64,000 nucleotides of DNA from Elusimicrobiota bacterium. GTDB lineage: Bacteria; Elusimicrobiota; Endomicrobiia; Endomicrobiales; JBDRNC01. The DNA lies in the NCBI GenBank assembly GCA_043811535.1, contig JBDRNC010000018.1, forward strand, positions 108,455-172,454, in the 5' to 3' direction. Positions 11,619 through 58,148 of this stretch are shown one piece after another (position 1 is the stretch's first letter; every line of letters begins with the position of its first letter). Below the pieces are notes generated by a model. The model did no database searches, was not told the origin of the DNA, and saw only the letters and a program-made list of their open reading frames with translations. A program made the translations under genes and the position numbers.

Positions 11619-11690
11619 GTTGAACTCCTTAGCGTTAGAATAAACTGCCGTATGTGAAATCCGCCGTGGCGGAAACTCACCTCTCTATTA
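11619..11690 (-). promoter_or_regulatory. Conserved 5' leader motif copy (more diverged) upstream of the small membrane protein gene 11442..11618
   Basis: CCGCCACGGCGGATTTCACATACGGCAGTTTATTCTAACGCTAAGGAGTTCAAC-GTG. Confidence 0.45.
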
Positions 11691-11768
11691 ATTAGGAGTA
11701 CCCGCCAGGATATAACCGCTCCTTTGAAACCGTGATCCCACCCCGTAGGTTGGATACTCTTGGTTCAG

Positions 11769-13004
11769 TTATTTTGAATGCGGAACATCCGCCGAAGGCA
11801 ACTCGACCGTGAAGACCGCTCCCTTGTCGTACTCACTCCGCGCGTGGATCATGCCTCCGTGCTGGCGGACGATCTTGTAAGACAGACTCAAACCGAGACC
11901 CGTGCCCTCGGCATAAGTGGTAAAGAAAGGTTCGAACAACCGGTCAATCTCGCCCTTCTTGATGCCCGGCCCGTTATCCGATATCTCTATAATGACAGTT
12001 TTTCTCTTGTACGAGGTGCTTATCCTGATCTCTTTCGCCCTGTTCTCGCGCTGCGACACAAGAGCGTGGCGCGCGTTCTCTAGTATGTTTATTAAAACCT
12101 GCTCAAGCGACTGGGCGTTTCCCGAAACAGCCGGCATATCTGGCCCGAGATCCTTTCTGACGCTTATATTATCGAAGACAAGCTGTTCTCCGGTAAGCGA
12201 AAGGGCCGATTCCACAACGTCGTTGACGTTCAGCAACAACCGCTCGGGCGCTTCGCCCAATCTGACGTAATCCATTATATTCTTAATTATGCGCGAGGTC
12301 TTTTCTGAAGCCGAGACAATATTTTCCCACAGTTTCTGCCGTTCCGCTTCGTCATGTTCCTTTCGCAGTTCGCCCGAGTATCCAAGGAGGACGCACAAGG
12401 GGTTCCTTATCTCGTGCAGGACCGCGGCAAGCATTTCGCCGAGTGCGGATAAGCGTTCCATGTGCGCGACCTGTTTTTCCGCGGCCCGCCGTTCCGCGTC
12501 AGAGTAATATAGGAATATGAATGAAATGATGAAAAAGAACGGGATACGCAGAAGGAGCACGGTATTATTCAAAGAAATCTCGCCGCCCCTCAGCGACACC
12601 AGAGCGCCGTATACGACTACGACCACTATCGTCATCACGAACGCGTGCCCGATGCTGTTCCTTCCGCCGGCCATGAAGATCATTAAAAAATAAACCAGAT
12701 AAAGGTCCGAATCGATGCCATGGCTGAAATAGATAAGTAAGGATATCAGGACTAAGTCCAGCATGAAAAGCGATATGCGGAACCAGCGCAGAGAGAAATA
12801 GCGCCGGTCAATGAAGATGAAAGCCACATTCGACAGCGCGTATAGCGAAAAAATAAGTATCAACGGTTTCAAACTGTACACCTTATTGGCGTCAAAGCCA
12901 TACATAACAAGAAAAGCGCAAACGATGATAACCAGGAAACGGAGGGTTATCAGCACACTCTTATCATTCAGCGCAAATGCCTTTTTAGTCAATGGACTAT
13001 TCAT
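11769..13004 (-). CDS. Sensor histidine kinase (multi-TM N-terminus, HisKA, HATPase_c); no cognate response regulator adjacent
   Basis: H-box LSALGEMLAAVLHEIRNPL and G-boxes DNGPGI...GTGLGLS, with about 6 N-terminal TM helices. Confidence 0.8.
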   Translation of the reverse strand: MNSPLTKKAFALNDKSVLITLRFLVIIVCAFLVMYGFDANKVYSLKPLILIFSLYALSNVAFIFIDRRYFSLRWFRISLFMLDLVLISLLIYFSHGIDSDLYLVYFLMIFMAGGRNSIGHAFVMTIVVVVVYGALVSLRGGEISLNNTVLLLRIPFFFIISFIFLYYSDAERRAAEKQVAHMERLSALGEMLAAVLHEIRNPLCVLLGYSGELRKEHDEAERQKLWENIVSASEKTSRIIKNIMDYVRLGEAPERLLLNVNDVVESALSLTGEQLVFDNISVRKDLGPDMPAVSGNAQSLEQVLINILENARHALVSQRENRAKEIRISTSYKRKTVIIEISDNGPGIKKGEIDRLFEPFFTTYAEGTGLGLSLSYKIVRQHGGMIHARSEYDKGAVFTVELPSADVPHSK

Positions 13005-13090
13005 AGTTTTTTGGCGTTTAGCGTACGGCGTATCACCTTAAGAGGTCGTCTTCTGTTTCCCGCTTCCTGCTCCCTGCTTCCTTCTTCCGT

Positions 13091-14827
13091 CTACTTTGCT
13101 CTGTCCGGATAGGGCAGCGAAGCCTTTCCATGCATCAGTTCAGCCTGTGAATTTACCTCCGTCATGGCGGAAGCGAGCGCCTTATATATGTTGTCGTGTA
13201 TGTCATATATACCGTAATTCGAGTTTTCCCCGTCGAACGACCTTCCCTGCGGCGATTCATCGGCGTACATAAACCAGTGATAGCCCACCGCGTAAGGGAA
13301 ATCCATCAGCTGCGCGACGTATTTGCGAAAACCGTCCGCCCTGTCTTCCTGGCTCTGAACTGTCACATCGGCCCCGTGCGTGTTCCTGTCGCCGCTGGCG
13401 TTTTCCATCGCCCTGTACGAGAACTCGGTCACCATAACCGGCTTCTTTCCCAGAAAATACATGTTATCAAATACTTCTTTCCTGAGGATTTTGTCTTTCG
13501 CGTAATAGTTGAGCGATATTACGTCGCAGTATTTCCCGCAGGCCTCAATGACTCTTTTCGGAGCGTTGTTTGCGAAACGCGAACCGAGTATCAGGTGGTC
13601 CGTGTCATATTTGCGTATCGCTGAAGTCATCACGGCGAAATATCTTTCCGCCACCCTTCCCGCGAACTCTTCCCTGTCTTCGTCAGTACGCCCTCCGCGT
13701 TTCGTGAGCGGGCCGTACAGGCCGAACTCTTCAAAACTCTCAAAATTTGTTCCCCAGACGCCGTTAAACTCGCCGATATCGCGGTATCTTTCCTTAAAGA
13801 AAGCGGCCAATACCTTGCTGCCTGGAGTGACGGAGGGCAGGTTTGAATAAACGTCAAGCAGGGTTGTCACGTGGCCGGTGTACCAGCCGACATCGCCGTA
13901 CCACGGCAGTTCGTTATCCAGAAAATATCCGATTAGGTATTTGGCTCCGCTCATGCGCCTGCAGTACTTTTTGATTACCTGTTCCGCGTTCAATTCAAAA
14001 TCCGGCGCAAACACATCCGCGAGCCTGTGCGAACTGGAAACATTTACGTAGATGAACAGGGTAAACGGAAGGTCGTACGCGAATGAATGGTCGTTTGACC
14101 AGCAGCCCAGGGTATTGAAGTTAAGCTTCTTGAGCCGTTTCACGGCCGAGGCGCCCCACTTCCTCAAATTCTTGAATTTTCCGGCAACGGAGTAGCGCTC
14201 GGATCCTTCTTTTGCGGTGCCGTCTTCCGGTACCACGGCGTCCACGCCTTTTGAAAGGAAAAGCCCTCCGTCCGGATGGACAAGCCAGTAAATGTCCCCC
14301 TCTTTTCTGATCTTGAAGAAGCTGTTGCCGGTCTTGTAGGTAGGCTGCACGCTGACATCCTTATACGGTTTGTCCATGAATTCCGTCTCCCAAATGGAGT
14401 TACCCCATTGCGTGGCCCTTTCAATGCAATTTATCATGACGTATTTGACCTTGTAGGCCTTTTTAAAATTTATTTTCCTGTAATTGCCTTCCAATTCCCC
14501 GGTGACCTCCGCGGCTGTCTGCCATTTCTCGTTATCCGTTGAAACCAGTATCTGATAGCTGTACGCGGCGGCGGTTTCCCAGTGAATGCCCACGGCCCTT
14601 ATGCCGGTGATCCCGGCGAACTCATATTTTATCCATTGGTTGTCCGCGAAATCAGAACCCCACCTCGTTTTCATGTCGCCGTCGCAGGCCATCATGGGCT
14701 GGTAATCGCTCTCCCCGGAAGAAGCCGTGACTGACGATATTTTATTATTGAGCTGGGCCGATACAGGAATATTTAACGCGGCAAGAAGGGACAATGCAGC
14801 CAGAATGGTATTTATGGATAATCTCAT
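13091..14827 (-). CDS. Secreted protein with N-terminal F5/8 type C (discoidin/CBM32-like) domain and glycoside-hydrolase-like TIM-barrel region
   Basis: Signal peptide MRLSINTILAALSLLAALNIPVSA. Discoidin-like segment SDYQPMMACDGDMKTRWGSDFADNQWIKYEF. The remainder is a large catalytic-looking domain. The family was not resolved. Confidence 0.5.
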   Translation of the reverse strand: MRLSINTILAALSLLAALNIPVSAQLNNKISSVTASSGESDYQPMMACDGDMKTRWGSDFADNQWIKYEFAGITGIRAVGIHWETAAAYSYQILVSTDNEKWQTAAEVTGELEGNYRKINFKKAYKVKYVMINCIERATQWGNSIWETEFMDKPYKDVSVQPTYKTGNSFFKIRKEGDIYWLVHPDGGLFLSKGVDAVVPEDGTAKEGSERYSVAGKFKNLRKWGASAVKRLKKLNFNTLGCWSNDHSFAYDLPFTLFIYVNVSSSHRLADVFAPDFELNAEQVIKKYCRRMSGAKYLIGYFLDNELPWYGDVGWYTGHVTTLLDVYSNLPSVTPGSKVLAAFFKERYRDIGEFNGVWGTNFESFEEFGLYGPLTKRGGRTDEDREEFAGRVAERYFAVMTSAIRKYDTDHLILGSRFANNAPKRVIEACGKYCDVISLNYYAKDKILRKEVFDNMYFLGKKPVMVTEFSYRAMENASGDRNTHGADVTVQSQEDRADGFRKYVAQLMDFPYAVGYHWFMYADESPQGRSFDGENSNYGIYDIHDNIYKALASAMTEVNSQAELMHGKASLPYPDRAK

Positions 14828-14926
14828 ATGGTTATTATATCAAAAAAGAAATACCGCGGGCGCGTAGCCGCTTTACGGGGGTAGGTCGTTCTCCGTCTTC
14901 CAACTTCCATCTTCCGTCTGCTGTAA

Positions 14927-15088
14927 TTATTTGTACAGCAGTATAAGCGATTTATAGACTATCATCGCGGGCCAGAAAAGCGCCTTTATACAACCAAGCA
15001 CGCCCATCCAGAAAGTGACGGCCCCTTTGATGTAAAACACCGCCGCTCCGATGACTCCCATGACGTAAATACTGGATCTGATAATCAT
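14927..15088 (-). CDS. Small hydrophobic membrane protein (53 aa), conserved-leader-associated
   Basis: Hand translation: MIIRSSIYVMGVIGAAVFYIKGAVTFWMGVLGCIKALFWPAMIVYKSLILLYK. AAGGAGG precedes the ATG. It is absent from the ORF track, which omits short ORFs. Confidence 0.5.
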   Translation of the reverse strand: MIIRSSIYVMGVIGAAVFYIKGAVTFWMGVLGCIKALFWPAMIVYKSLILLYK

Positions 15089-15160
15089 ACCAACCTCCTT
15101 GAGCACAATAAGTGTTTCTACTAAATTGCCTTATGCGAAATCCCCGTCAGGGGATAATTG
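15089..15160 (-). promoter_or_regulatory. Conserved 5' leader motif copy upstream of the small membrane protein gene 14927..15088
   Basis: CCCCTGACGGGGATTTCGCATAAGGCAATTTAGTAGAAACACTTATTGTGCTCAAGGAGGTTGGT-ATG. Confidence 0.5.
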
Positions 15161-15463
15161 TCCGCCGCGAACCCAAGAGGACACTTAATTAAACATCCAA
15201 TTGCATGCCGATATTCTATCAAATAACACTTCGGAAGTGTTAGAGCGGTTATGGTGACCAATACAACTTCGTAGGTTGTATCGGTTTAAGCGCGAACAAC
15301 TGCGGGATATATATCCCGCACCCCCGCGGATATGTCATATTTATATTGAAAATACAATGCGAATATATCCCGCATTTTATCCCGCATTTATCCCGCACTT
15401 CAGGGCCGCGGATATCTGCGGGATAAATCTATTCTGGTAAAGCCTGACGCCGTTTCTCAATTT

Positions 15464-15979: not shown

Positions 15980-16172
15980 TGATGCCTCCTGGATTTCACT
16001 TCATTCCTACCTAAGGAACTACAGCCCTTTTTTGAAACGCGGGAAACGGGGTCAACTTGACAACTTAAGCGACTTCTCCTTCCCTTTTACGACTAAATGT
16101 ATCTTTTGTCGATTTATGCGCCATCACAACGATTTTATTCTATAATTTTGGGTTGTTTTTTGCAAGAATATA

Positions 16173-16224
16173 AAGGGGACGGTTCTATTTTTTCTGAAAG
16201 AAAAATAGAACCGTCCCCTTTTTT
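16173..16224. terminator. Bidirectional intrinsic terminator hairpin, member of a 3-copy repeat family (GGGGACGGTTCTATTTTT...AAAAATAGAACCGTCCCC), followed by a TTGCAA-N17-TAGAAT promoter
   Basis: Perfect long inverted repeat flanked by A/T tracts on both sides. Confidence 0.6.
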
Positions 16225-17392: not shown

Positions 17393-17444
17393 AAGGGGAC
17401 GGCTCTGTTTTTCTTTTAGAAAAAAATAGAACCGTCCCCTTTTT
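17393..17444. terminator. Second copy of the GGGGACGG...CCGTCCCC terminator module (TTGCAA-N17-TAGAAT promoter for mscS adjoining)
   Basis: Same repeat with 2 mismatches. Promoter seen on the minus strand at 17350-17378. Confidence 0.6.
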
Positions 17445-18904: not shown

Positions 18905-18958
18905 AAAAAAGGGGACGGTTCTATTTATTCTGAAAGAAAAATAGAACCGTCCCCTTTT
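18905..18958. terminator. Third copy of the GGGGACGG...CCGTCCCC terminator module between the MATE gene and the radical SAM gene
   Basis: Same repeat, flanked by promoters facing both ways. Confidence 0.6.
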
Positions 18959-20176: not shown

Positions 20177-21727
20177 ATGAAAATACATTCTTTATTTAAT
20201 AAGTACTTCCATCTTCCTTCTTCCATCTTCCGTCTCGTCCTGGCTTCCATCTTCCTTCTTCCATCTTCCGTCTTGCCTGCCGTCAGGCAGGCAGCAGTGG
20301 CGGGGCAGTTCTATCCCGATAATCCCAATGAGCTTTCGGCCATGGTTCAGAATTATCTTGACCAGGTGCCCGCGATAGCGCTTGACGGCGAGCCGGTCGC
20401 GGTCATGGTTCCGCACGCGGGATATATTTTCTCGGCAAAAACCGCGGCATACGCTTTCAAACTGATAGAGCAGACCGGCGCGGAAAACGTGATACTCATC
20501 GGCAACAGCCACCGTTTTTATCTAAGCAAAGGCGCTGTTGTTTCCGAAGGCAAATTCAAGACGCCGCTCGGAGAAGTGGAAATAAACAGCGAACTCGCCA
20601 GGAAAATCCTGGCAAACACTGCGCTGCTGGAAGAAAACGCGCAGGCGCACGCGCCGGAACACTCGCTTGAAGTTGAACTCCCGTTTTTGCAGAAAACACT
20701 TAAGAAATTCAGGATAGTGCCCATACTTTTAAGCGAAATGCCGGTTTCAAGGTGCGAAGCGATAGGAAAGGCAATTGGAAAGGCGGTCGCGGAACTCGGG
20801 ATTAGCAAAAAAACCATCATAGTGGCCTCAAGCGACATGTCCCACTATCCCCGTTACAAAGACGCGAAAATCTCGGATAACAGGATACTGGAATCCGTTA
20901 AGAAATTTGACCCCGCGGTATTGGCGGCGACTGACGCGGCGATAAAAAGAGATAATATTTCCGAACTTCAATGCACGCTCTGCGGGCTTGAATCAGTCTG
21001 CGCGGCGATGTACGCGGCCAGGTATCTCGGCGCGACTTCGGTAAAAGTGCTTAACTACACGAACTCCGGCGACGCTTCCGGCGATACGTCAAGAGTGGTC
21101 GGATACGGCTCCGTAGTGTTCTATAGACCCGGAAAGATTATAAAAACAGCCGTAAAAGAGGTAAAGGCCATGGATGAATTCAAGGTAAGCGAGAAAGGGC
21201 AGAAAGCCCTGCTGAAGATCGCCAGGGAATCCATTGAAAGCTATCTGAAAACCAAAAAACTTCCGTCTTTTGACGTTACCGACAAGGAGCTTCTCGCGCC
21301 GGGCGCGGTTTTCGTAACACTTACCGAAAAAGGCGGCTTGCGCGGATGCATAGGCACTACCGTAGCCCAATCGCCGCTTTACCAGGCAGTGAGCCAGCTG
21401 GCTGTCGCGGCCGCTGTGGAGGACACGCGCTTTCCGGAAGTAACGGCCGGCGAGCTGAAAGATATACACATCGAAATATCGGTGCTTTCACCGCTGACTA
21501 GAATTAAGAACGCTGATGAAATACTCCCCAACAAGCACGGCGTTGTAGTCAGAAAAGGTTTCAGAAGCGGGCTGTTCCTACCCCAGGTCTGGGAACATTT
21601 CAACAAAAAAGAAGATTTCATGGACGAGCTCTGCTGGCAAAAGGCGGGCCTTGACCGCAATGCCTGGAAAACCAGTGAAGTAGAGTTATATATATTCACG
21701 GTATTCGCGTTTGAAGAAAGCAAATGA
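20177..21727 (+). CDS. Fusion of AmmeMemoRadiSam system protein B (Memo-like) and protein A (AMMECR1 domain), with an N-terminal hydrophobic extension
   Basis: Memo motif AVAGQFYPDNPNEL...MVPHAGYIFS in the N-terminal half. AMMECR1 motif LRGCIGTTVAQSPLY in the C-terminal half. About 37 aa of hydrophobic leader precede it. Confidence 0.75.
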   Translation: MKIHSLFNKYFHLPSSIFRLVLASIFLLPSSVLPAVRQAAVAGQFYPDNPNELSAMVQNYLDQVPAIALDGEPVAVMVPHAGYIFSAKTAAYAFKLIEQTGAENVILIGNSHRFYLSKGAVVSEGKFKTPLGEVEINSELARKILANTALLEENAQAHAPEHSLEVELPFLQKTLKKFRIVPILLSEMPVSRCEAIGKAIGKAVAELGISKKTIIVASSDMSHYPRYKDAKISDNRILESVKKFDPAVLAATDAAIKRDNISELQCTLCGLESVCAAMYAARYLGATSVKVLNYTNSGDASGDTSRVVGYGSVVFYRPGKIIKTAVKEVKAMDEFKVSEKGQKALLKIARESIESYLKTKKLPSFDVTDKELLAPGAVFVTLTEKGGLRGCIGTTVAQSPLYQAVSQLAVAAAVEDTRFPEVTAGELKDIHIEISVLSPLTRIKNADEILPNKHGVVVRKGFRSGLFLPQVWEHFNKKEDFMDELCWQKAGLDRNAWKTSEVELYIFTVFAFEESK

Positions 21728-21828: not shown

Positions 21829-22431
21829 ATGATAAATGGTTTCTTATTAGGTTTATCCAACAATCTCTTCTGTTTCCTGAACTGCGCCGTGGTATTCATC
21901 CCCTACGCGCTGGCATCCAAAAACAAATCTTACATCTCGATAACCCTCTTCATGGCGGGGCGGCTGATAGCCTACGTATTTTTCGGTTTTGCCGCCGGTT
22001 ACACGAGCTTATACTTTGACGGGCGCATTGACCCGCTCTATTACCATTTTTTCACTCTCCTGATGTCGCTTTGGCTCATCGCGTTCGCGCTGGGAAAATT
22101 GAATCTCAAGCTTTCCGCGTGCGCGTGGATGGGCAGCAGATTTTCGGGAAAGACCTTCCCGCTTTTTCTGGGAATCCTGATGGGTCTGAACATCTGCCCG
22201 CCGTTCATGCTGGGGCTGAGCGAAACACTGCAGATGAGCAGCGTGCTGAAGCCGGTCGTTTTCTTTCTGGGGTTTTATCTGGGCTCCAGCCTGTGGCTTC
22301 TTGTTTTTCTTTTCACAGGGAAGCTCGCGCAGCTCAAATTCATCAGTTTGTCTGCCAAGATAATCTCACTTCTCGTAGGACTCTACTACTTCGGAATATC
22401 CGTTTCAAAATTGGCATACTTTATCTTATAA
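21829..22431 (+). CDS. Hypothetical polytopic membrane protein with Cys-containing TM motifs (FCFLNC, NICPPF), possibly partnered with the AmmeMemoRadiSam genes
   Basis: 200 aa with about 6 TM helices. It sits about 100 bp downstream on the same strand. No confident family assignment. Confidence 0.45.
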   Translation: MINGFLLGLSNNLFCFLNCAVVFIPYALASKNKSYISITLFMAGRLIAYVFFGFAAGYTSLYFDGRIDPLYYHFFTLLMSLWLIAFALGKLNLKLSACAWMGSRFSGKTFPLFLGILMGLNICPPFMLGLSETLQMSSVLKPVVFFLGFYLGSSLWLLVFLFTGKLAQLKFISLSAKIISLLVGLYYFGISVSKLAYFIL

Positions 22432-22435
22432 CAAC

Positions 22436-22551
22436 GATTACACCGATTTTTAACAAAGATTACACGGATAATTAATCTGTGGAATCAGTTGTAAATCTGT
22501 GTAATCGTCTTAATTAATCTGCGTAATCGCTGTTTGTTATCTGTGTAATCG
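22436..22551. repeat. GATTACAC 13-mer array: 2 forward plus 5 reverse-orientation copies downstream of glnK
   Basis: gattacaccgatt, gattacacggata, then aatctgtggaatc, aatctgtgtaatc, aatctgcgtaatc, tatctgtgtaatc at 20-23 bp spacing. Confidence 0.75.
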
Positions 22552-22559
22552 TAGTATAA

Positions 22560-22628
22560 AAGAAGAAGGACCCGGGTGACGCCCAACCCTTTCCGGCCCA
22601 ACGGAAAGGTACCCGAGCCCTTCAAAAT
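22560..22628 (-). terminator. Long GC-rich imperfect hairpin followed by U-tract on the minus strand; probable glnK terminator
   Basis: GAAGGACCCGGGT...CCCTTTCCG..CGGAAAGG...ACCCGAGCCCTTC; the minus strand continues UUCUUCUUUU. Confidence 0.4.
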
Positions 22629-22708
22629 AAATTACAGATTCCAGATTACAAATTTAACGTCTTTAAGTCTTCAATATGTAATCTGTAATTTCCAATTTGT
22701 AATTGTTT

Positions 22709-23068
22709 CTATCCTATCGCTTCGCAGCTGCACTCGCCGGTGCGAATCCTGACGCACTCGGGCAGGTCAAGGATAAATATCTTGCCGTCGCCTACCTCTC
22801 CCGTCCTGGCGCCCTTTATGATGGCGTCAACAGTCGGCTTGACGAAGTTGTCGTTTACCGCTATCTCAATCCTCGTCTTTTTCAGGAGATTTCCGGTCTC
22901 TTTTACTCCGCGATAGATCTCGGTAATGCCTTTTTGCCTGCCATGCCCCAGGACTTGGCTGACGGTTATGAGGTTGACCTCCGCTTGGTACAATTCCTTC
23001 TTAACTGCATCCAATCTGTCCGGCTGGATTACTGCGATAATTAGTTTCATATTGAGCTCCTTGAACAC
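22709..23068 (-). CDS. glnK: Nitrogen regulatory protein P-II (GlnK type, paired with amtB)
   Basis: MKLIIAVIQP...GDGKIFILDL...RIRTGE. The C-terminus ends in the Cys-containing tail ECSCEAIG. It has the conserved leader. Confidence 0.9.
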   Translation of the reverse strand: MFKELNMKLIIAVIQPDRLDAVKKELYQAEVNLITVSQVLGHGRQKGITEIYRGVKETGNLLKKTRIEIAVNDNFVKPTVDAIIKGARTGEVGDGKIFILDLPECVRIRTGECSCEAIG

Positions 23069-23125
23069 CTAAAGTGTTGTTCTGAATTGCCTTACGTGAA
23101 ATACCCGTCAGGATATTGAACGTTT
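23069..23125 (-). promoter_or_regulatory. Conserved 5' leader motif copy upstream of glnK
   Basis: CCTGACGGGTATTTCACGTAAGGCAATTCAGAACAACACTTTAGGTGTTCAAGGAGCTCAAT-ATG. Confidence 0.55.
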
Positions 23126-23353
23126 TATTTGTGCGAAACCCCTCTTCACTTCGTTTCGGGGGCGTTCCAGTCCCGCCAACGGCGGGAATAGACTCCTTAC
23201 ATATTTCATCCCCCCTTGTGGGGGAGGATTAAGGTGGGGGGTATCGAACATTTTCACCCTCACCCTGCCCCTCGGCACCCCCATCTACGGAAATCCCAGT
23301 GGGGAAGCACACTGTGCTTCCCCCTATCATCAAGGGAGAGGGTATAATTAATT

Positions 23354-24601
23354 TTACTCTAATATCGTATACGCGCCCTCGTGGTGTTCCGCAAGGTCAA
23401 GGCCCATATTCTCCTCTTTTTCTTTAACACGCATTCCGAGCGTAAGGTCAACGGCCTTGAAGATGACCGCCGTTCCGGCAACCGTGTAAAGAATCGTGGC
23501 GCCGGATGCAAGTATTTGCGTGAACAACTGCTTGGCGTTGCCGAAGAACAGACCGTCGGCTCCAGCTGAATTCACCGCTACACTCGCGAATAATCCCGTG
23601 GCCAGCGCCCCGAACAATCCGCCAACCCCGTGAACACCGAACGCGTCAAGCGCGTCGTCGTAACCAAGTTTCGGCTTGACAACCGCGACCATGAAGAAGC
23701 ATAACGCGCTAACGAGAAGCCCGATTATCATTGCCGGCACAATGCTCACAAAGCCGCAGGCGGGCGTTATCGCTACAAGTCCCGCGACAGCGCCCGTAGC
23801 CACCCCTAGGGTAGTCGGCTTCCCGCTGAATATCCACTCAAGCAGGGCCCATGACAAGCCCGCCGCGGCTGTCGCCGTGTTGGTCGTGACAAAAGCGTTA
23901 ACCGCCAGGCCGTTGGCTCCAAGCGCGCTTCCAGCGTTGAATCCGAACCATCCGAACCACAGGAGCCCGGCTCCCATGACGGTAAATGGAATATTATGCG
24001 GCGCCATAGGAGCGTTTTCATACCCCTTTCTTCTTCCTATCATAAGCGCCGTTACAAGCGCCGCGAAACCGGCGTTGATGTGAACGACTGTGCCGCCCGC
24101 GAAATCAAGCGCGCCCATACCCCTCAGCCACCCGCCGACGCCCCATACCCAGTGTGCTACCGGGTCATAGACGAACGTAGCCCATAACAAACTAAATAGC
24201 AGGAAAGAAGAGAACTTCATCCTTTCCGCGAACGCTCCTATGATAAGCGCGGGCGTAATGACCGCGAACATCATTTGGAATATCATAAACAGTTGGTGCG
24301 GTATCGTGGCGGCATAGGCGGGATACGGCTCCATGCCTACCCCGTTCAGCGCGAACCATTTAAGCGAGCCGATGAACCCGTTTCCCGGCGAAAAAGCCAG
24401 GCTGTAGCCGAACAGGATCCATTGCAAGCTGATGACGCACAGCATTATCGCGCATTGCATCAGCACGCCCAAGACGTTTTTTCTCCTTACGAGCCCGCCG
24501 TAGAAGAGCGCCAGCCCCGGCAGCGTCATCAAAAGGACCAGCGCAGTGGAGATAAGCATCCACGCCGTGTCACCGGTATCTACCTTTATCAATGTGTTCA
24601 T
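23354..24601 (-). CDS. amtB: Ammonium transporter Amt
   Basis: 11-TM Amt signature (DFAGGTVVHINAGFAALV, GAxAxR-like regions). The start is at MNTLIK (GGAGGATAAG upstream). Confidence 0.9.
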   Translation of the reverse strand: MNTLIKVDTGDTAWMLISTALVLLMTLPGLALFYGGLVRRKNVLGVLMQCAIMLCVISLQWILFGYSLAFSPGNGFIGSLKWFALNGVGMEPYPAYAATIPHQLFMIFQMMFAVITPALIIGAFAERMKFSSFLLFSLLWATFVYDPVAHWVWGVGGWLRGMGALDFAGGTVVHINAGFAALVTALMIGRRKGYENAPMAPHNIPFTVMGAGLLWFGWFGFNAGSALGANGLAVNAFVTTNTATAAAGLSWALLEWIFSGKPTTLGVATGAVAGLVAITPACGFVSIVPAMIIGLLVSALCFFMVAVVKPKLGYDDALDAFGVHGVGGLFGALATGLFASVAVNSAGADGLFFGNAKQLFTQILASGATILYTVAGTAVIFKAVDLTLGMRVKEKEENMGLDLAEHHEGAYTILE

Positions 24602-24638
24602 CTTATCCTCCACAATTTATCCGTGCAATTCCGAAGTA

Positions 24639-24720
24639 GTAATCTGTGTAATCTCGTTAATAATCCGTGTAATCGTTGTCTGGAATCTGTGTAATCTTTG
24701 TTTTAAGCCGCGTAATCGTC
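24639..24720. repeat. GATTACAC 13-mer array within the amtB 5' leader (4 copies)
   Basis: aatctgtgtaatc, aatccgtgtaatc, aatctgtgtaatc, gccgcgtaatc. Confidence 0.7.
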
Positions 24721-24829
24721 TCAAATAAAAAAGCCCGCTTTCCCTTTCACAGGGTTAAAGCAGGCATCTTTACCTGAATTGCTATGAGGAACTACCGTGT
24801 CCCTCTATTAATTATCTTCGAAATCGCTT

Positions 24830-24940
24830 TTCGAATCAGTGTAATCGTCTTTGAAATAGAAAAAGCCCTCAAATCAACCTTTGACCTGAGGACTTCCTTG
24901 TCCTATATGTATATTATACTCAAAAAATAATTTCTGTCAA
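24830..24940 (-). promoter_or_regulatory. Promoter plus conserved leader: hexaloop hairpin and intrinsic-terminator attenuator upstream of amtB-glnK (copy 1)
   Basis: On the minus strand, TTGACA-N16-TATAAT, then AGGACAAGGAAGUCCU (loop AAGGAA), then CCUCAGGUCA...UGAUUUGAGGG followed by CUUUUUCUAUUUC, then GATTACAC motifs. Confidence 0.5.
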
Positions 24941-25016
24941 GTGGGCATGCAAATAAGGATTTGAAAGCTCGTATTTCACGACGAAAAACCACATCCGGCC
25001 GATCCTGACGGACAGG

Positions 25017-27602
25017 TCACGGCCTGAAACAAACGATATTCTGCGACACTATATCGGCCATGACCTGGAGCTCGCCCTCTTTCAGGTCGTACACTTTCAC
25101 GATCCCCCCGTGCTTGGTCTCCCCGCCCATAATTCCGGAAAGAATATCGTCATACTTATCCAGAAATTTATCATTGAAGAAGGCCTTATCCCTTGACGCG
25201 AATATCGCCACGTAAAAGATGTTCGTTTCAACCAGATCCTGAAAAAAGTGCGTTCCGAACGACAGTTCGGGACTGACGTGACCGCCGGAGTATTCAAGCT
25301 CGACCAGAACAGAAATATTGTTTATCTCCGCGAAACTCACAGGAACACCCAGGGAAGGCGTCGATGTCCCCCACCTTCCGGGCCCGACAAGCAGCGCCGG
25401 CAGTTTATCCCTGTCGTCTATGCGCTTGTTCAGGTTCCCGACCAGCCTCGCTACCTCATATTTTTCCGGTATTGTAAGCTTGTCATACTTAGCGGGGTCA
25501 ACGTATATTATCCTCTTTATATACTGGGCAATGTTGCCTCCCATGAAATTGCCGTGAGACTGAAAAAGAATGTTCTCTTTTTTTACGTTTAAGGGTATTT
25601 CTACTTTTTTTCCATATCCGATCGTCTGCAAAGGCCTGCATTGAAGCAGGTTTAGTTTGAAATCATCTTTTTCCGTGAAATTCAGCGTGAATTCTATGTC
25701 AACCGGATACTGGTAAGTATTCTCAAGAGTTTTCATCAGCCTTTGCATAATATCCTTGAACGGGGTTTCCGTGAAGAGTTTATTGAAACTGATGATCCAG
25801 GATTCCCGGCCTTTCATTCCGAGTTCCTTCATCTTATTCGTGGTTTCGCGGTCTTCCGCGCCTATGAATTTCATCTCAACGCCGGGTTTCTGCGCCATGA
25901 GTTCGGAAATCGGCATTTCCTGCAGTTCATTCGCCTCAATATTCAGAAGGTCTATCTTATGCTGGGAAAATTCCCTGTCATCCTCTTTGCCGGCGTTCGG
26001 CCTTAGCAGAGGATCGTCCAGCGCCGCAATCCTGGGATAATCGTCCTCCACGCGGTTTACGGCTCTTGTCCCGAGGCCGAAAACGAGCCGCAGCATCCCG
26101 GCCTTCGGGTCCATGTTCTCTTTCCATGTAAAAGTGTTGTGGGATATTCCTACGCCCGCGGCGTCAGGAAAGAAATAACTGCCGCGGTTCGAGCCTGAAA
26201 CCCTTTGTATGAGCAGAGCCATTTGCTCATCCTGCTGGTCAAGGCCGCGCTGCAGCCTGTAAGTCAGCGCGTCTTCGCTCATAGTGCTTGAAAATATTTT
26301 TTTGACGACTTCTTCTATCTTTCTGTATCTTTCTTCGGGGCTCCCCTGGTTTACCACGAAAATACTCTCGTATTTCCCGGCGAAAGCGTTCCCGAAACTG
26401 TCTTCCAGCAGACTGCTGGAACGGATGATTATCGGCGACTGTCCGAAATACTCTATCATCTCCCACAGCTGCTCCTTTAATTCATCAGGAAGCTTGCCGG
26501 TCATCATCCTCTGTTTCAGCTCGTCCGCCACCCTGAAATATCCTTCTTTCGTCCGCTGCTCCATCCGGAGCTTCCAAAGCCCGTTCTGAACCAGATATTT
26601 ATAGAAAACATCCGAACCTATATAGAATGAATCATGCGGTTCAAGATAATCGCCCCAGTTGACAGATTTTTCCTTCTGGAGTATTTTCCTTGAGAGGAGC
26701 ATGCCCACGGCTTTCCCGCCGATATACCCCGTGCCGATAAGCCGCGATTTGATGTTTAACAGGTCATCAATGGAAAAATTGCTTCTCGCGAGGGCAAGCA
26801 TCCTTTTTTCGCGCCCGATCATTATCTTGCACAACAGGTTTATCATCTCAAATTTCTTGTCAAGCGAAGTTGAGCTCAGCAATTCCTCCGCCTTGATGAA
26901 AAGGCGGTCCCAGTAGTCAAGGTTCCGCTCGGCGTTTTCCAGGCCTTTTTTAGAGATATACGAGAATAGTTTAGCAGTTTCCACTGAATTCGTGAGCGGC
27001 GTGAAGCTATCGCCCTCCTTCATGTGGGGCAGGAACATCGTCGGAGAATAGCGGTTCCATACCTTTAAAGGATGTATGTAATATTTCCCTTCAAAATCAT
27101 AGAGGTCTATAAGCAGCTGGGTTGTCTCTCTGATGCGCGCGATGGTCTTGTAGGAGTGGTTGTTGCGGAGTATCGCAAAATACGTGATGGTGTCTAATTC
27201 AAACAGGTAGGGACATGTAACCATGAAAAAGTTGCCTATCATGGAATCGCTGGCCCACGCCACGAGCAGGTCGGTAAGGCAGTCAAAGACGTAATAAACG
27301 CCCGCGCCTTTTTCCCTTATTATTTCATGGACCTGGGTTGAAAAGGATTCAAAGCCGTTATTCGCGTCAAGCGTGCAGACCGTGACTCCGTCTCCGGCTT
27401 CCAGGAGCTGTTCGTGCGCGGCAAAGCGCATGTACACGACCTTCTTCTTCTCCTGAAGCGCCTTTTTGACAAGTGGCCTTACAAAAACCTTATAATCTTT
27501 TATGTCGTCCAGCTGCCAGACGATGTTATCCCCGTCCCTTAGATAATTCAGGACATTATCCAGCCCTGAGAGCCCGGTGCTTGGCCAAACTGATGGTTTC
27601 AT
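25017..27602 (-). CDS. PEP/pyruvate-binding (PPDK_N) domain protein of unusual architecture (PEP synthase-like, no recognisable phosphohistidine domain)
   Basis: The central PPDK_N region reads LNIKSRLIGTGYIGGKAVGMLLSRKIL...IIRSSSLLEDSFGNAFAGKYES. The N-terminal 250 aa resemble a KaiC/RecA-like fold without a P-loop. No GGxTSHAAI motif is seen. Confidence 0.55.
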   Translation of the reverse strand: MKPSVWPSTGLSGLDNVLNYLRDGDNIVWQLDDIKDYKVFVRPLVKKALQEKKKVVYMRFAAHEQLLEAGDGVTVCTLDANNGFESFSTQVHEIIREKGAGVYYVFDCLTDLLVAWASDSMIGNFFMVTCPYLFELDTITYFAILRNNHSYKTIARIRETTQLLIDLYDFEGKYYIHPLKVWNRYSPTMFLPHMKEGDSFTPLTNSVETAKLFSYISKKGLENAERNLDYWDRLFIKAEELLSSTSLDKKFEMINLLCKIMIGREKRMLALARSNFSIDDLLNIKSRLIGTGYIGGKAVGMLLSRKILQKEKSVNWGDYLEPHDSFYIGSDVFYKYLVQNGLWKLRMEQRTKEGYFRVADELKQRMMTGKLPDELKEQLWEMIEYFGQSPIIIRSSSLLEDSFGNAFAGKYESIFVVNQGSPEERYRKIEEVVKKIFSSTMSEDALTYRLQRGLDQQDEQMALLIQRVSGSNRGSYFFPDAAGVGISHNTFTWKENMDPKAGMLRLVFGLGTRAVNRVEDDYPRIAALDDPLLRPNAGKEDDREFSQHKIDLLNIEANELQEMPISELMAQKPGVEMKFIGAEDRETTNKMKELGMKGRESWIISFNKLFTETPFKDIMQRLMKTLENTYQYPVDIEFTLNFTEKDDFKLNLLQCRPLQTIGYGKKVEIPLNVKKENILFQSHGNFMGGNIAQYIKRIIYVDPAKYDKLTIPEKYEVARLVGNLNKRIDDRDKLPALLVGPGRWGTSTPSLGVPVSFAEINNISVLVELEYSGGHVSPELSFGTHFFQDLVETNIFYVAIFASRDKAFFNDKFLDKYDDILSGIMGGETKHGGIVKVYDLKEGELQVMADIVSQNIVCFRP

Positions 27603-27644
27603 CCGTTATCCCCTTGATTTACATTTATCATCTGTGTAATCGCT

Positions 27645-27780
27645 TCTCCAATCAGTGTAATCGTCTTTGAAATAGAAAAAGCCCTCAAATCAAAAATGAT
27701 CCGAGGACTTCATTGTCCTGTCTGTTATCGTTCCTGCTATATTATATGGATATTTTAGCAGTTAATACATATTTGTCAAG
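27645..27780 (-). promoter_or_regulatory. Promoter plus conserved leader attenuator upstream of the PPDK_N-domain gene (copy 2)
   Basis: On the minus strand, TTGACA-N16-TAAAAT, then AGGACAAUGAAGUCCU (loop AAUGAA), then CCUCGGAUCA-UUUU-UGAUUUGAGGG followed by CUUUUUCUAUUUC. About 90 nt are near-identical to copy 1, with G·U-compatible substitutions in the stem. Confidence 0.5.
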
Positions 27781-27787
27781 CGCACCA

Positions 27788-28645
27788 TCACTTGCTCCGC
27801 AGGATATCAGAGACTTTTTTAAGAACGTCAACCTGCCTGTCTATGACGGGAACAGCGTCGTTTTTATAAGCGGGGATATTCTCTTCGAATGTTTTCTTGT
27901 TCTTGCTGACATAAAAGACGCCGAGCCCCAGTTTTCCGGTTTCAGTGGCCCGCTTGAAGGCCTCCTGCCTGTTTTCCGGGTTGTATCCTTCTTCAAGATA
28001 ATAGGTGTTTTCCTTGAACCACTGGTACGTGTTGACCTTATTGAACGTAACGCACGGCTGAAAGATATCCACAAGCGCGAAACCCTTGTGGTTGACGGCT
28101 TTTTTGATGAGTTCTTTGGTTTGGGGCGCGTCGCCGCAATAGGCTCTCGCGACGAATGAAGCGTCAAGCGATATCGCCACGGCAAGCGGGTTGAACGGCT
28201 GGGATATCACGCCGTCCACCTGGACAGGCGTCTTGAATCCCGGGCTGCTGGTAGGGGAGGCCTGGCCCTTGGTCAGCCCGTAAACCATATTATCGTGCAC
28301 TATCACGGTTATGTCCGGGTTCCTTCTTATCGCGTGTATGAAATGGTTGCCGCCTTCGCCGTACATGTCGCCGTCCCCGCTCTCGGCAATGACCGTCAAC
28401 TGCGGATTGACGGCCTTAATAGCCGTCGCGGGCGGGATTGACCTTCCATGAAGCCCGTTGAAATAGTGGACGTTCATGTACTGCGGGGCCTTGGCCGCCT
28501 GGCCGATGCCCGAAACAAGCACCAGTTTCTGCGTGTCAATATTCAGCTCATCCAGCGCCTCTTTCATTAGCTTGAGGATCGGGAAGTTGCCGCAGCCCGG
28601 GCACCAGGCATTGTCTACATTGTTATAATCGAATTTATTTGTCAT
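27788..28645 (-). CDS. korB: 2-oxoacid:ferredoxin oxidoreductase, beta (TPP-binding) subunit
   Basis: [10 protein letters not shown] and TPP-binding GDGDxxxxGxxH-like region ([32 protein letters not shown]). Confidence 0.8.
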
Positions 28646-32727: not shown

Positions 32728-32964
32728 TTATAATCCCAATTCTTTATTCAACTCTTCCTTATCAAATCCTACTATTATCTTTCCTTCGATGTCTATGACC
32801 GGAACGCCAAACTGCCCGGATTTATCCTTCATTTCCTTCAGCGCGTCCTTATCCTGCCCGACGTCAAAATTCTCGTACTGGACGTTCTTTTCCTTGAAAT
32901 ACTCTTTCAGCATCATGCAGTAAGGGCATGTTGACGTCGAATAGACCTTGATTGATTTAGACAT
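32728..32964 (-). CDS. Glutaredoxin-like protein (NrdH/Grx family)
   Basis: 78 aa with VYSTSTCPYCMMLKEYF (CPYC). It has the conserved leader. Confidence 0.7.
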   Translation of the reverse strand: MSKSIKVYSTSTCPYCMMLKEYFKEKNVQYENFDVGQDKDALKEMKDKSGQFGVPVIDIEGKIIVGFDKEELNKELGL

Positions 32965-33030
32965 AATAACTCCTTGAGCACCTTAAGTGTTGTTCTGAAT
33001 TGCCTTATGCGAAATCCGCCGTGGCGGATT
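32965..33030 (-). promoter_or_regulatory. Conserved 5' leader motif (GC hairpin - AUUUCGCAUAAGGCAAUUCAGAACAACACUUAAGGUG - SD) upstream of the glutaredoxin-like gene; representative of 8 copies
   Basis: The minus strand reads CCGCCACGGCGGATTTCGCATAAGGCAATTCAGAACAACACTTAAGGTGCTCAAGGAGTTATT-ATG. Confidence 0.55.
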
Positions 33031-33058
33031 AACCTCCGGTTAAATGTAATCGTCTTAT

Positions 33059-36010: not shown

Positions 36011-36167
36011 CGGTTTTCTCGAATAAATCCTTTCCCACGCCGCAAACCGGGCAGACCCAATCCGCAGGCAGGCTTTCAAAAGACGTATTCGGCGGAATTT
36101 TGGCGTCCGGATCGCCCTTAGCCGGGTCATAGATGTAGCCGCAAACGGTGCATTTGTACTTTTGCAT
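36003..36167 (-). CDS. Rubredoxin
   Basis: Hand translation: [54 protein letters not shown], with CxxCG ... CPxCG. Absent from the ORF track. It is preceded by the conserved leader and AGGAGG. Confidence 0.85.
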
Positions 36168-36225
36168 GGAACACCTCCTGTGTTTTCCTAAACTGCCTTA
36201 TGTGACATCCCCGAAGCGACAACAT
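36168..36225 (-). promoter_or_regulatory. Conserved 5' leader motif copy upstream of rubredoxin
   Basis: CGCTTCGGGGATGTCACATAAGGCAGTTTAGGAAAACACAGGAGGTGTTCC-ATG. Confidence 0.55.
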
Positions 36226-36358
36226 TAATTTAATTCATGGAGCAGAGCGGGATTTTGAGCTCCTTTCTACCAAGTCTTCCTCCCCCCTTGTGGGGGAGGA
36301 TTAAGGTGGGGGGGCACCCCCATCCCGGCCTTCCCCCATAAAGAGGGAAGGAGAATGT

Positions 36359-39331: not shown

Positions 39332-39472
39332 GATTACTCCTTACTGTAAAGCAGGGTCCAGTAGCCAAGGTCCAGGGTCCAGGAAAACACTAAAAAATAA
39401 TTACAAATAATAGTGCGGTACGCAGCCAGTTTTGTCTTCCGTCTTCCGTCTTCCGTCTTCCGTCTGCGGTCT

Positions 39473-40279
39473 TCAGTTCCCTGTTTTAGGGGTAATCAAG
39501 ATTGAAGTGTCCTTGCCCATCATGTACTGGGGAAGATGCCCGTCCCATTTGGCTATCCATTGGAGGGCGATACCCTTGTCTGAAACCGTCTCCTTGAGCA
39601 TCTGCTGTTTTCTGGCTTCCCCTTCAGCGTCAAGAATAACGCGTTTCTTGTTTTCCTCCGCCTGCATCCTCTGGTACTGGGCCGTCTTGATCTTCTGCTC
39701 TTCTATCTGTTTCTGTTCGACAACCTTATTGAATTCATCGGCAAAGTCAATGTCAACCAGATTTACGTTTTCCAGTATTATATTATACGTCAACAAACGC
39801 TTTGCCAGAAGGCTCTCTATTATGGCTTTAACGCTCTCTCTTTCAACGATAATCCGCTCGACCTGATACTGGGAAACAGCGGCCTTTACCGCCTCATTTA
39901 CCGCCGGCTCGATCACTTTCTGCATGTAATCTCTTCCCACTTTCACGTATATCTGGTCAACCATCGTGTAGTCCAGGTGGTAATTCAGGACTGTTTCCAT
40001 TTTTACAAGCTGAAGGTCCTTTGAGGCGCCTTCGGCAAGTATGTCAAGGCGCTGCGTCTTGACATCGAACTTGTTTACCGTGTGAACGATAGGTATCCTG
40101 AAATGAGTTCCCTGCGAGTACGACGCGGTCTCTCCGCTGATGTTATTGAAAGTCACGCCCACCTGGCCCGGTCCCACCACGAATATCGGGTTGATGATAA
40201 GCGCCGTAAAAAGGACCACAAGTCCCGCGGCAATAAGAGTAACAGTCTTGAACGGATTTTTTCCTAAATCTTCCAGCAT
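39473..40279 (-). CDS. SPFH/band-7 (prohibitin/HflKC-like) membrane protein
   Basis: N-terminal TM helix followed by an SPFH domain and a coiled-coil tail. Confidence 0.75.
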   Translation of the reverse strand: MLEDLGKNPFKTVTLIAAGLVVLFTALIINPIFVVGPGQVGVTFNNISGETASYSQGTHFRIPIVHTVNKFDVKTQRLDILAEGASKDLQLVKMETVLNYHLDYTMVDQIYVKVGRDYMQKVIEPAVNEAVKAAVSQYQVERIIVERESVKAIIESLLAKRLLTYNIILENVNLVDIDFADEFNKVVEQKQIEEQKIKTAQYQRMQAEENKKRVILDAEGEARKQQMLKETVSDKGIALQWIAKWDGHLPQYMMGKDTSILITPKTGN

Positions 40280-40325: not shown

Positions 40326-40423
40326 TCTCTGATTACACTGATTATACAAAGATTACACAGATTAAATATCCGTGTAATCGTTTCTAAGAATCTATGCAAT
40401 AAGTGTACCCAATCTGTGTAATC
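40326..40423. repeat. GATTACAC 13-mer array upstream of the SPFH gene (includes GATTACACAGAT-N6-ATCCGTGTAATC palindrome)
   Basis: Seen directly. Confidence 0.7.
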
Positions 40424-40583: not shown

Positions 40584-41525
40584 TTACTTACTTACTCTCT
40601 CACTCTCGGGCGGCGTTTTAAACATAAGCGAAACAACTATCGATACCGTCAGCACGACCGCTATGAAGCCTAAAGACGCGCCTATCGATATCTTATAAAA
40701 ATCCGTAAGCAGCATCTTTACTCCGACAAACGATAACACCACCGAAAGCCCGTAATTCAGGAACCTGAACATCTGCATGCTCCCGGCAAGGGCGAAATAC
40801 ATCGCCCTCAAGCCCAGTATCGCGAGGATATTCGAGGAATAAACGATAAATGAATCGAGGGTAATCGCGAGCGCGGCGGGTATTGAATCTATCGCGAAAA
40901 CTACATCGGTGCTTTCAACAACCAGTAAAACAAGAAAAAGCGGGGTGACCAGCAGCTTTCCTGCGTCTTTTATGAAGAATTTATCATTATTCTGCCAAGG
41001 CGACACGGGGAATAACTTGCGGGACAGGATAAGAACCGGATTTTTTTCGGGATGAACTTCCTCATCCTTCTGGAACGCCAGTTTAATACCGACATATACA
41101 AGCAACGCACCAAAAATATATATCGTCCAATGGAATTTGGCAATGAGCGCGGTTCCCGCCAGAATAAAGAAAGCCCTCATTACCATCGCGCCGACTATTC
41201 CCCAGAAAAGGACTTTGTATTGATATTCGGAATGCACCTTGAAGTAGTTGAACAGGAGGACAAATACGAAGATGTTGTCAATACTGAGAGAACGTTCTAT
41301 CAGGTAGCAGGTGAAGAACTCCAGCCCCTTTTGAGGCCCGGACCAGAACCAGACGCCCGCGTTGAATAAAAGCGCGACGATTATCCAGACCGCGCTCCAT
41401 ATAAGCGACTCTTTTACTCCGATGGTCCTGCTGCCTTTATGGAACACTCCTAGATCCAGCAGAAGGAGTATCACTACGAAAACATTGAATAATATCCACG
41501 CGTATAGATGCATTGAGCTCCTCAA
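40584..41525 (-). CDS. TerC family integral membrane protein
   Basis: 313 aa with about 9 TM helices and TerC motifs (SIDNIFVFVLLF). It has the conserved leader. Confidence 0.8.
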   Translation of the reverse strand: MRSSMHLYAWILFNVFVVILLLLDLGVFHKGSRTIGVKESLIWSAVWIIVALLFNAGVWFWSGPQKGLEFFTCYLIERSLSIDNIFVFVLLFNYFKVHSEYQYKVLFWGIVGAMVMRAFFILAGTALIAKFHWTIYIFGALLVYVGIKLAFQKDEEVHPEKNPVLILSRKLFPVSPWQNNDKFFIKDAGKLLVTPLFLVLLVVESTDVVFAIDSIPAALAITLDSFIVYSSNILAILGLRAMYFALAGSMQMFRFLNYGLSVVLSFVGVKMLLTDFYKISIGASLGFIAVVLTVSIVVSLMFKTPPESERVSK

Positions 41526-41575: not shown

Positions 41576-41658
41576 CCAAAAACGTATCTCGGGACTCGTA
41601 TCTCGTCGTTCGTAGTATGCCTTACGAGATGCGAGATACTAGATACGAGATACCGTAG

Positions 41659-58137: not shown

Positions 58138-58148
58138 AACATGACATG

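Follow-up and report, generated by a model that had tools for sequence, protein, structure and literature searches.

Putative ANTAR-type attenuators ahead of amtB-glnK and a PPDK_N gene in an Elusimicrobiota bacterium

Antitermination of nitrogen genes by ANTAR-domain proteins is already established, through GnfR of Geobacter and the predictions of Ramesh 2012, and the principle is not new. Two leaders are described here from a 64,000-nt stretch of the Elusimicrobiota contig JBDRNC010000018.1 (the window). Copy 1 precedes the ammonium transporter gene amtB and the P-II gene glnK, and copy 2 precedes a gene for an 861-aa PPDK_N-domain protein. Both are probably cis attenuators of a nitrogen-assimilation regulon that are opened by ANTAR protein-dependent antitermination. 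A preliminary description of the window had proposed such a nitrogen attenuator, and the proposal is now supported by further copies, by covariation, by an invariant G at position 4 of the hexaloop (G4) and by an ANTAR gene in the nitrogen cluster of a relative. L-numbers denote the loci fetched for comparison.

The closest described system is that of Geobacter sulfurreducens, in which the receiver-ANTAR protein GnfR binds the RNA box CAGGCAANGGCGCC, a GGC-AANGGC-GCC hairpin-like box (Ueki & Lovley 2010, PMC2995071). This box lies upstream of and overlaps the terminators in the nifH, nifEN, nifX and hypothetical-glnK-amtB leaders (PMC2995071). The GnfK/GnfR leaders resemble copies 1 and 2 in that a single box with an AANG... 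loop overlaps the intrinsic terminator of nitrogen genes, including glnK-amtB. The box itself differs, as the copies carry AGGAC-AAKGAA-GUCCUC and do not match CAGGCAANGGCGCC; a module in locus L042, UAGGCAUAGGCGCC, matches the GnfR box at 12/14 positions. GnfR leaders are transcribed from an RpoN -24/-12 promoter with GnfM sites, whereas the copies have a sigma70-type -35/-10 consensus. GnfR is a receiver-ANTAR response regulator with a kinase, whereas the ANTAR protein that accompanies the motif in a relative is of the one-component GAF-GAF-ANTAR kind.

In many Firmicutes and Deltaproteobacteria, ammonium transporter and P-II genes are predicted to be preceded by ANTAR RNAs (Ramesh 2012, PMC3369931). 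The table of that study mentions ammonium transporters 18 times and neither Elusimicrobium nor Nitrospira (PMC3369931). The EutV-controlled eut leaders of Enterococcus faecalis share with the copies short stems and hexaloops with A at position 1 (A1) and G4, and a second module found behind copy 1 (module 2) has exactly their dual form. In contrast, the copies lack a P1 recruitment hairpin; their one hairpin, which overlaps the terminator, is placed at the very 5' end of the RNA, and the stem sequence of their family is far more conserved than that of the eut sites. Each ANTAR dimer contacts one hexaloop, and the minimal binding motif has been redefined as a single hexaloop, although EutV antitermination still requires both hairpins (Walshe 2022, PMC8934654).

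NasR/nasF of Klebsiella and AmiR/amiE are alike in using a one-component (NasR) or pseudo-receiver ANTAR protein for antitermination at a hexaloop hairpin before a terminator. Their targets are nitrate or amidase genes, whereas the targets here are amtB, glnK and glnA. Among one-component ANTAR proteins, which carry NIT, PAS or GAF sensors, only PAL and NasR had been characterised according to the 2020 NasR paper (PMC7496416). EutX/Rli55 is likewise a short RNA carrying ANTAR hexaloop sites, but it acts in trans under riboswitch control, whereas the terminated RNA here would arise as a side product of attenuation in cis; that it also serves as a decoy is only speculation.

Anatomy of the leaders

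The gene order on the minus strand is POR alpha/beta, copy 2, the PPDK_N gene, copy 1, module 2, amtB and glnK. The gene calls amtB, glnK and PPDK_N made in the preliminary description are upheld by Pfam matches, and the PPDK_N and AmtB proteins are each 100% identical to Elusimicrobiota metagenome-assembled genome (MAG) proteins at NCBI. The features of the region are as follows; R1 is the covariance model described in the next section.

27779..27752, minus strand: copy 2 promoter, TTGACA-N16-TAAAAT, 11/12 matches, TG before the -10 hexamer
27719..27704, minus strand: copy 2 hexaloop hairpin, AGGAC-AAUGAA-GUCCU (A1, G4), proposed antiterminator if held by protein
27711..27670, minus strand: copy 2 terminator, core stem 27708..27681, extending to 27711..27678, U-tract 27680..27670, model R1 65.1 bits
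25017..27602, minus strand: 861-aa PPDK_N-domain gene, 3' of copy 2, Pfam PF01326, 187 bits
24940..24913, minus strand: copy 1 promoter, TTGACA-N16-TATAAT, 12/12 matches, orthologous to the L039 promoter
24904..24889, minus strand: copy 1 hexaloop hairpin, AGGAC-AAGGAA-GUCCU, beginning 8 nt past the -10 hexamer
24896..24854, minus strand: copy 1 terminator T1, core stem 24893..24865, U-tract 24864..24854, model R1 65.2 bits
24805..24786, minus strand: module 2 hairpin P1, GAGGGAC-ACGGUA-GUUCCUC (A1, G4), from model search and folding
24776..24761, minus strand: module 2 hairpin P2, CAGGU-AAAGAU-GCCUG (A1, G4), after a 9-nt linker from P1
24765..24727, minus strand: module 2 terminator T2, stem 24765..24733 re-using the 3' arm of P2, U6 at 24732..24727
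23354..24601, minus strand: amtB, ammonium transporter, Pfam PF00909, 436 bits
22709..23050, minus strand: glnK, P-II, matched by Pfam, about 300 nt 3' of amtB, with its own repeated upstream element in front

The near-consensus sigma70 promoters reported earlier for both copies score 12/12 and 11/12 and are the two top sigma70-type matches within positions 22000-28500. The small hairpins with an A1/G4 hexaloop are likewise present on the minus strand where they had been placed. The copy 1 hairpin begins so soon after the -10 hexamer that it should form the extreme 5' end of the RNA; the predicted transcript of copy 2 has about 26 nt ahead of the hairpin. When a nascent 23-mer is folded, each small hairpin forms alone at about -6 kcal/mol (copy 2: -6.2).

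An intrinsic terminator had been claimed for both copies, and it is borne out by U-tracts and by minimum-energy folds, which form terminator hairpins of 15-16 bp at -22.9 kcal/mol in copy 1 and -21.1 kcal/mol in copy 2 (z = -5.5 and -4.9). UUUUUCUAUUU stands directly 3' of the terminator stem in both. The minimum-energy terminator takes up the 3' arm (GUCCU) of the small hairpin and part of its loop. When the small hairpin is clamped, the leftover stem has 7-8 bp of A/U/G.U composition at -5.2/-5.5 kcal/mol, and the five unpaired bases AGGGC part it from the U-tract; in these folding models it is not predicted to be a functional terminator. The proposed mutual exclusivity of hairpin and terminator is therefore real, since the terminator fold consumes GUCCU and clamping leaves a stem of about -5 kcal/mol off the U-tract, and the overlap is larger and the effect stronger than had been described.

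The hairpin-terminator core occurs exactly twice in 64 kb against 0 expected, and so does the 3' arm of the terminator (2 against 0). The near-identity of the copies, put earlier at about 90 nt, comes down to a 71-nt stretch that is 90% identical and a functional core of about 50 nt; much of the remaining likeness comes from two repeat units. Even the upper terminator stem, elsewhere variable, is common to the two copies, and this suggests that they were recently duplicated or gene-converted within the genome. Both have a 5-bp stem, a 6-nt loop with A1 and G4 and a terminator that excludes the hairpin, and thus all RNA-level features of an ANTAR target but a second hairpin.

Rfam 15 covariance models run on the window gave, at gathering score, only a thiamine pyrophosphate (TPP) riboswitch elsewhere, and at E <= 10 they gave chance-level matches only between positions 24400 and 28000. 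A glutamine riboswitch (glnA RNA, Downstream-peptide) was rejected on these scans, in line with the earlier statement that the leaders do not resemble one.

The preliminary description recognised the T1 attenuator of the amtB leader and overlooked module 2, a second attenuator between T1 and amtB at 24805..24727, which was found by model search and folding. Its tandem hairpins (24805-24761, 9-nt linker) make it, as read from the sequence, a canonical dual-hexaloop ANTAR substrate by the definition of PMC3369931 and PMC8164766. A window-wide scan for hexaloop hairpins (R at loop position 1, G at position 4) that share their 3' arm with a U-tract terminator gave five matches, which were copy 1, copy 2, P2 and two within coding sequence.

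The following mechanism is proposed. The strong sigma70-type promoter would fire, and the first 16-20 nt of the RNA would fold into the 5-bp hairpin with its hexaloop. By default, the next 30 nt or so would displace the 3' arm of the hairpin and form the 15-16-bp intrinsic terminator, so that transcription would stop about 55 nt (copy 1) or about 75 nt (copy 2) from the predicted start. On induction, which presumably means nitrogen limitation, an ANTAR protein in its activated state would grip the hexaloop with G4 flipped out and keep GUCCU in the hairpin. The leftover stem, weak and off the U-tract, would then let RNA polymerase read on. Ahead of amtB, the polymerase would next have to pass the second, dual-hexaloop module. 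We infer the protein binding and the nitrogen-limitation signal in this scheme.

Recurrence in other lineages and a candidate regulator

Further copies were found by pattern scans of a genome collection, with loop positions 1 and 4 fixed, and of a metagenome collection, with the whole loop free; neither scan constrained the variable upper stem. These scans gave homologues with different yet complementary terminator stems, beside chance matches in coding sequence. A Nitrospirales genome contig (L004) has the motif 5' of a BBP2 porin gene, followed by glnK, amtB and glnA. The related metagenome contigs L008 and L022 have it in the same position before the porin, with glnK and amtB following in L022. 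A Planctomycetales contig (L005) carries two copies 5' of amtB-glnK. Other metagenome contigs have the motif before amtB (L013), a porin (L029), a class-II glutamine amidotransferase (L030) and a membrane protein (L009). L003 from the genome scan was discarded as a chance match in coding sequence. Of the 29 stretches from the metagenome scan, 21 were set aside for want of a convincing complementary terminator stem; they were coding matches, chance matches or, in L025 and L031, ambiguous ones.

Covariance model R1 was built from 11 members found by the pattern scans and was then used to find more divergent copies. Three of these lie in L039, the closest relative, which is syntenic with the window (rubrerythrin, desulfoferrodoxin, POR alpha/beta, X, amtB) and whose AmtB is 81% identical. 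There, orthologous single-hairpin leaders occupy the POR-to-GATase_4 and GATase_4-to-amtB spacers, together with a dual-hairpin module. In the Elusimicrobia loci L041, L042, L047 and L050, model-R1 copies or tandem modules precede a gene for a 232-240-aa protein with amtB, a second amtB, glnA-III, nadE and GATase_4. The preliminary description had expected true elements to recur upstream of nitrogen genes with compensatory changes in both stems, and they do recur in relatives and other phyla upstream of amtB, glnK, glnA, porin, GATase_4 and nadE genes.

The compensatory changes are found as well. In the upper terminator stem, all six variable pairs change on both sides. Terminator-stem cells are paired in 96.5% of cases against 30-52% in slid-partner controls, and none of 500 shuffles reaches the observed covariation. 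The search patterns prescribed the small hairpin stem of the first 11 members; in the model-found members this stem shows the compensatory variants AAGAC/GUCUU, AAGGC/GCCUU and AGAAC/GUUCU against AGGAC/GUCCU. Loop G4 is present in 11/11 members found with the loop free and in all further model-found members. Loop A1 is present in 8/11 of the former, and over all members this position is mostly A and otherwise G. In 15 leaders, 30 of 60 hexaloop hairpins have an A1/G4 loop, against 6% of 1276 in the window at large.

The leaders take two forms. In form (a), a consensus promoter abuts a single hairpin and its terminator, as in copy 1, both L039 leaders, L030, L041 and the L042 amtB2 leader. In form (b), P1 is followed by a 5-24-nt linker and by P2 with a terminator, as in module 2 of the window, L039, L041, L042, L004, L022, L029, L013, L009 and the leader of the L050 ANTAR gene. 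The succession of form (a) and then form (b) ahead of amtB is kept in the window, L039, L041 and L042.

The window and the other fetched loci were searched for ANTAR domains by phmmer, with Rv1626 (a sequence that matches PDB 1s8n over its full length, 422 bits) and the L050 protein as queries, and among these loci only L050 encodes a candidate regulator. L050 is an Elusimicrobia MAG locus whose AmtB is 75% identical to that of the window. Its nitrogen cluster comprises GAF-GAF-ANTAR, nadE, a sigma-factor-like gene, GATase_4, a gene for a 240-aa protein, amtB, P-II, amtB, P-II and glnA.

L050 2234-3448: GAF-GAF-ANTAR gene, PF03861, 71 bits against a cut-off of 27.3

Copies of the motif lie ahead of the ANTAR gene itself, nadE and GATase_4 in L050, and the GAF-GAF-ANTAR gene is probably autoregulated through its own ANTAR-type leader. 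Its ANTAR domain aligns to Rv1626, NasR (chain 4akk) and EutV. In the EutV-RNA structure, Arg, Lys and Tyr contact the flipped-out G4 (PMC8934654), and the L050 domain keeps the residues aligned to these three, assuming a numbering offset of 2. The sensor part is GAF-GAF, whereas that of NasR is NIT.

Homologues of the L050 protein are 400-420 aa long and 58-82% identical to it, and those named come from Elusimicrobia, Nitrospirae/Nitrospiria, Manganitrophaceae, Nitrospinota and Latescibacteria, with one labelled Actinobacteria. This distribution overlaps the phyla that have the RNA box, and protein and box are alike in being unusually conserved. The regulator of the leaders is thus probably a one-component GAF-GAF-ANTAR protein and not a GnfR-type response regulator, and we infer that it is also present in this genome. 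A literature search for ANTAR proteins in these phyla gave no useful report. An orphan HisKA/HATPase_c histidine kinase gene lies at 11769-13004 on the minus strand of the window, which is without any response regulator.

Weighing of the readings

A cis-acting terminator/antiterminator of a nitrogen regulon, whatever the factor, is very probable. Several observations weigh against an ANTAR protein as that factor. The phmmer searches gave no ANTAR-domain open reading frame in the 64-kb window and none in the other 470 kb or so of fetched loci except L050. The copies have one hexaloop hairpin and not the dual motif that EutV needs for antitermination. ANTAR-target RNAs have two such hairpins in tandem, joined by a linker of about 2-25 nt, but from the predicted start to the terminator each copy has just one, and a scan with inspection of the 26-nt 5' extension of copy 2 and of the interior of the terminators gave no second hexaloop hairpin. 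Loop position 1 is G and not A in three family members, and the invariance of the small stem in the first 11 members was partly imposed by the search patterns.

The same switch might be run by a ligand (a glutamine, 2-oxoglutarate or ammonium riboswitch) or by an unrelated RNA-binding factor. The missing ANTAR gene in the window would fit this, as would the 17-nt box AGGACAAKGAAGUCCUC and GAGGGC, which are unusually conserved across phyla. However, known aptamers are larger than a 5-bp stem with a 6-nt loop, the leaders match no Rfam family even at E <= 10, and conservation falls exactly on the ANTAR determinants, which are G4 and mostly A1. With canonical dual-hexaloop modules beside the copies and an ANTAR gene in the cluster of a relative, a non-ANTAR factor is unlikely. 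It is about equally improbable that the copies are genes for short (about 55 nt) terminated RNAs that act in trans, such as decoys titrating an ANTAR regulator in the manner of EutX/Rli55. A consensus promoter that abuts the hairpin, with a strong terminator after it, would suit such a gene; a full dual-hairpin module follows the single-hairpin one in the amtB, L039, L041 and L042 leaders, and single hexaloops, which EutX uses, are enough for binding. However, no second promoter or module stands ahead of the gene in copy 2, in the L039 GATase_4 leader or in that of L042 amtB2, and in L004, L005b and L009 the ribosome-binding site lies 10-30 nt past the U-tract, so the copies must also act in cis. 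Cis and trans roles are compatible with each other.

At the level of DNA, AGGAC-N6-GTCCT could be imagined as the operator of a dimeric, NrpR-like nitrogen repressor at the transcription start, with the terminator incidental. NrpR operators do sit at the transcription start, and the inverted repeat lies at +1 of consensus promoters in copy 1, L030, L039 and L042; symmetric stem changes would fit a DNA palindrome too. This reading was rejected, and we hold it very unlikely, on the variable promoter distance (about 2 to 60 nt, in L004, L022, L029 and L005a) with constant terminator overlap and on the conserved asymmetric spacer (G4, A5), which a palindromic operator does not need. The element is also always oriented with the gene, and its G.U pairs preserve the RNA helix but break DNA symmetry. 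The least credible reading of all is that the copies have no regulatory function and owe their likeness merely to being a dispersed repeat or to recent duplication. Their 3' tail is a genome-wide repeat and their shared variable upper stem suggests recent duplication or gene conversion, but the core occurs only twice in 64 kb, and its cross-phylum conservation with covariation, specifically before nitrogen genes, already contradicts this reading.

Within the preferred reading of ANTAR-dependent cis attenuators, a further proposal is possible but doubtful, namely that the single 5'-terminal hexaloop module, whose box AGGAC-AANGAA-GUCCUC hardly varies, is the cognate site of an uncharacterised one-component GAF-GAF-ANTAR regulator of very high conservation and that the two form a distinct cross-phylum nitrogen antitermination system. 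The motif is found in Elusimicrobiota, Nitrospirales and Planctomycetales, and the protein in Elusimicrobia, Nitrospirae/Nitrospiria, Nitrospinota and Latescibacteria. The GAF domain of NifA senses 2-oxoglutarate, and in such a system the GAF domains may directly sense a nitrogen-status metabolite, such as 2-oxoglutarate. Antitermination would then need no P1 recruitment hairpin. Abundant terminated RNAs of about 55 nt might then buffer the regulator ahead of the dual-hairpin module.

The copies and their homologues carry the mechanism into Elusimicrobiota, Nitrospirales and Planctomycetales, in which experimental genetics is scarce or lacking. They provide a sharply defined, searchable RNA box that marks nitrogen regulons (amtB, glnK, glnA, porin, GATase_4, nadE) and, in the GAF-GAF-ANTAR protein, a concrete candidate regulator from the little-characterised one-component ANTAR class. 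As natural single-hexaloop attenuators, they could test the revised one-hexaloop ANTAR model.

The PPDK_N gene, repeats and other features

The PPDK_N gene had been placed tentatively in the nitrogen regulon, and the leader is indeed present before it here. This association looks lineage-specific, however, as orthologues lack the motif and the corresponding slot in L039 holds GATase_4. An exact look-up of the window PPDK_N protein gave no record. The closest orthologues (64-75% identity) lie in hydrogenase-maturation clusters, where the leader motif is missing. In L001, L002, L036 and L037, the gene is part of hypA-hypF-hypC-GNAT-(LOG-like)-PPDK_N-hypD-hypE clusters beside Mrp/Mbh-type membrane hydrogenase genes.

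L036 5255-14630: PPDK_N-hyp cluster
L037 5947-14819: PPDK_N-hyp cluster

This setting hints at a role of the PPDK_N protein in hydrogenase maturation or its energy supply. A homologue in Geobacter OR-1 lies between alpha-amylase and PGI, also without the motif. In L039, the slot between POR beta and amtB is taken by a GATase_4 gene with an orthologous set of promoter, hairpin and terminator ahead of it, and on the simplest reading the PPDK_N gene came to sit behind a pre-existing nitrogen leader in this lineage. Nitrogen control of the gene is plausible here and would not be a conserved property of the PPDK_N family; that it follows a leader which, in the closest relative, belongs to a glutamine amidotransferase gene hints at nitrogen-dependent expression but does not prove it.

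The conserved tail that the preliminary description counted among the ordered elements of the leader did not hold up. GATTACACNGATT is a dispersed repeat with a 22-nt period, present in 30 copies in the window against 0.23 expected. All but one of the 30 copies are intergenic, often in head-to-head inverted arrays between genes. Only the tails belong to this repeat; the hairpin-terminator core lies outside it. The orthologous leaders of L039 are without GATTACACNGATT, and the GATTACAC tail was rejected as a leader component on its genome-wide occurrence and its absence from the L039 leaders. The repeat units and arrays are listed below.

27662..27629, minus strand: two GATTACACNGATK units in the 5' untranslated region of copy 2, a generic genome repeat with no counterpart in the L039 orthologue
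24846..24834, minus strand: tail repeat of copy 1, a GATTACACNGATT unit
24696..24641, minus strand: three GATTACAC units between T2 and the amtB ribosome-binding site, a generic repeat
761-854, 22404-22560, 24641-24696, 24834-24846, 27629-27662, 40331-40423, 58139-58244 and 61636-61717: GATTACACNGATT arrays in the window

Other Elusimicrobia contigs have different short intergenic repeats, of the GTAGAC type in L001, the GACAACAGACA type in L042 and the GTGATTA type in L044.

The spacer between amtB and glnK (23069-23353, minus strand, about 300 nt) contains G/C-rich hairpins, one of which recurs at 36277-36313, and a repeated upstream element. With this spacer, amtB and glnK may not be one simple operon. 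The start of glnK is probably the ATG at 23050 and not the GTG at 23068. The repeated element is a conserved stretch of about 55 nt directly 5' of 8 or more start codons, among them the one of glnK, and consists of a small GC hairpin, ATTTCRCATAAGGCAATTYAG..AACACTTAAGGTGTTCAAGGAG and ATG. It occurs at the following positions.

11620-11720, 15070-15170, 23040-23140, 32955-33055, 36130-36240, 41485-41585, 61545-61645 and 62990-63090, minus strand: upstream element of about 55 nt

No recognisable sigma70 or sigma54 promoter was found in it, and it could be a lineage-specific promoter with a 5' untranslated region, or a regulon box.

The TPP riboswitch (RF00059, 56.6 bits) lies at 47336-47446 on the minus strand, and a perfect 45-nt tandem duplication at 47424-47513 overlaps its 5' end. 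A 51-nt perfect palindrome, AAAGGGGACGGTTCTATTTTTTCTGAAAGAAAAATAGAACCGTCCCCTTTT, has three intergenic copies (16172-16222, 17393-17443 and 18908-18958), which look like bidirectional terminators. Tandem repeats of the 7-nt units CTTCCGT / CTTCCAT are also intergenic and are found at 13063-13106, 14890-14919, 20206-20273 and 39436-39479.

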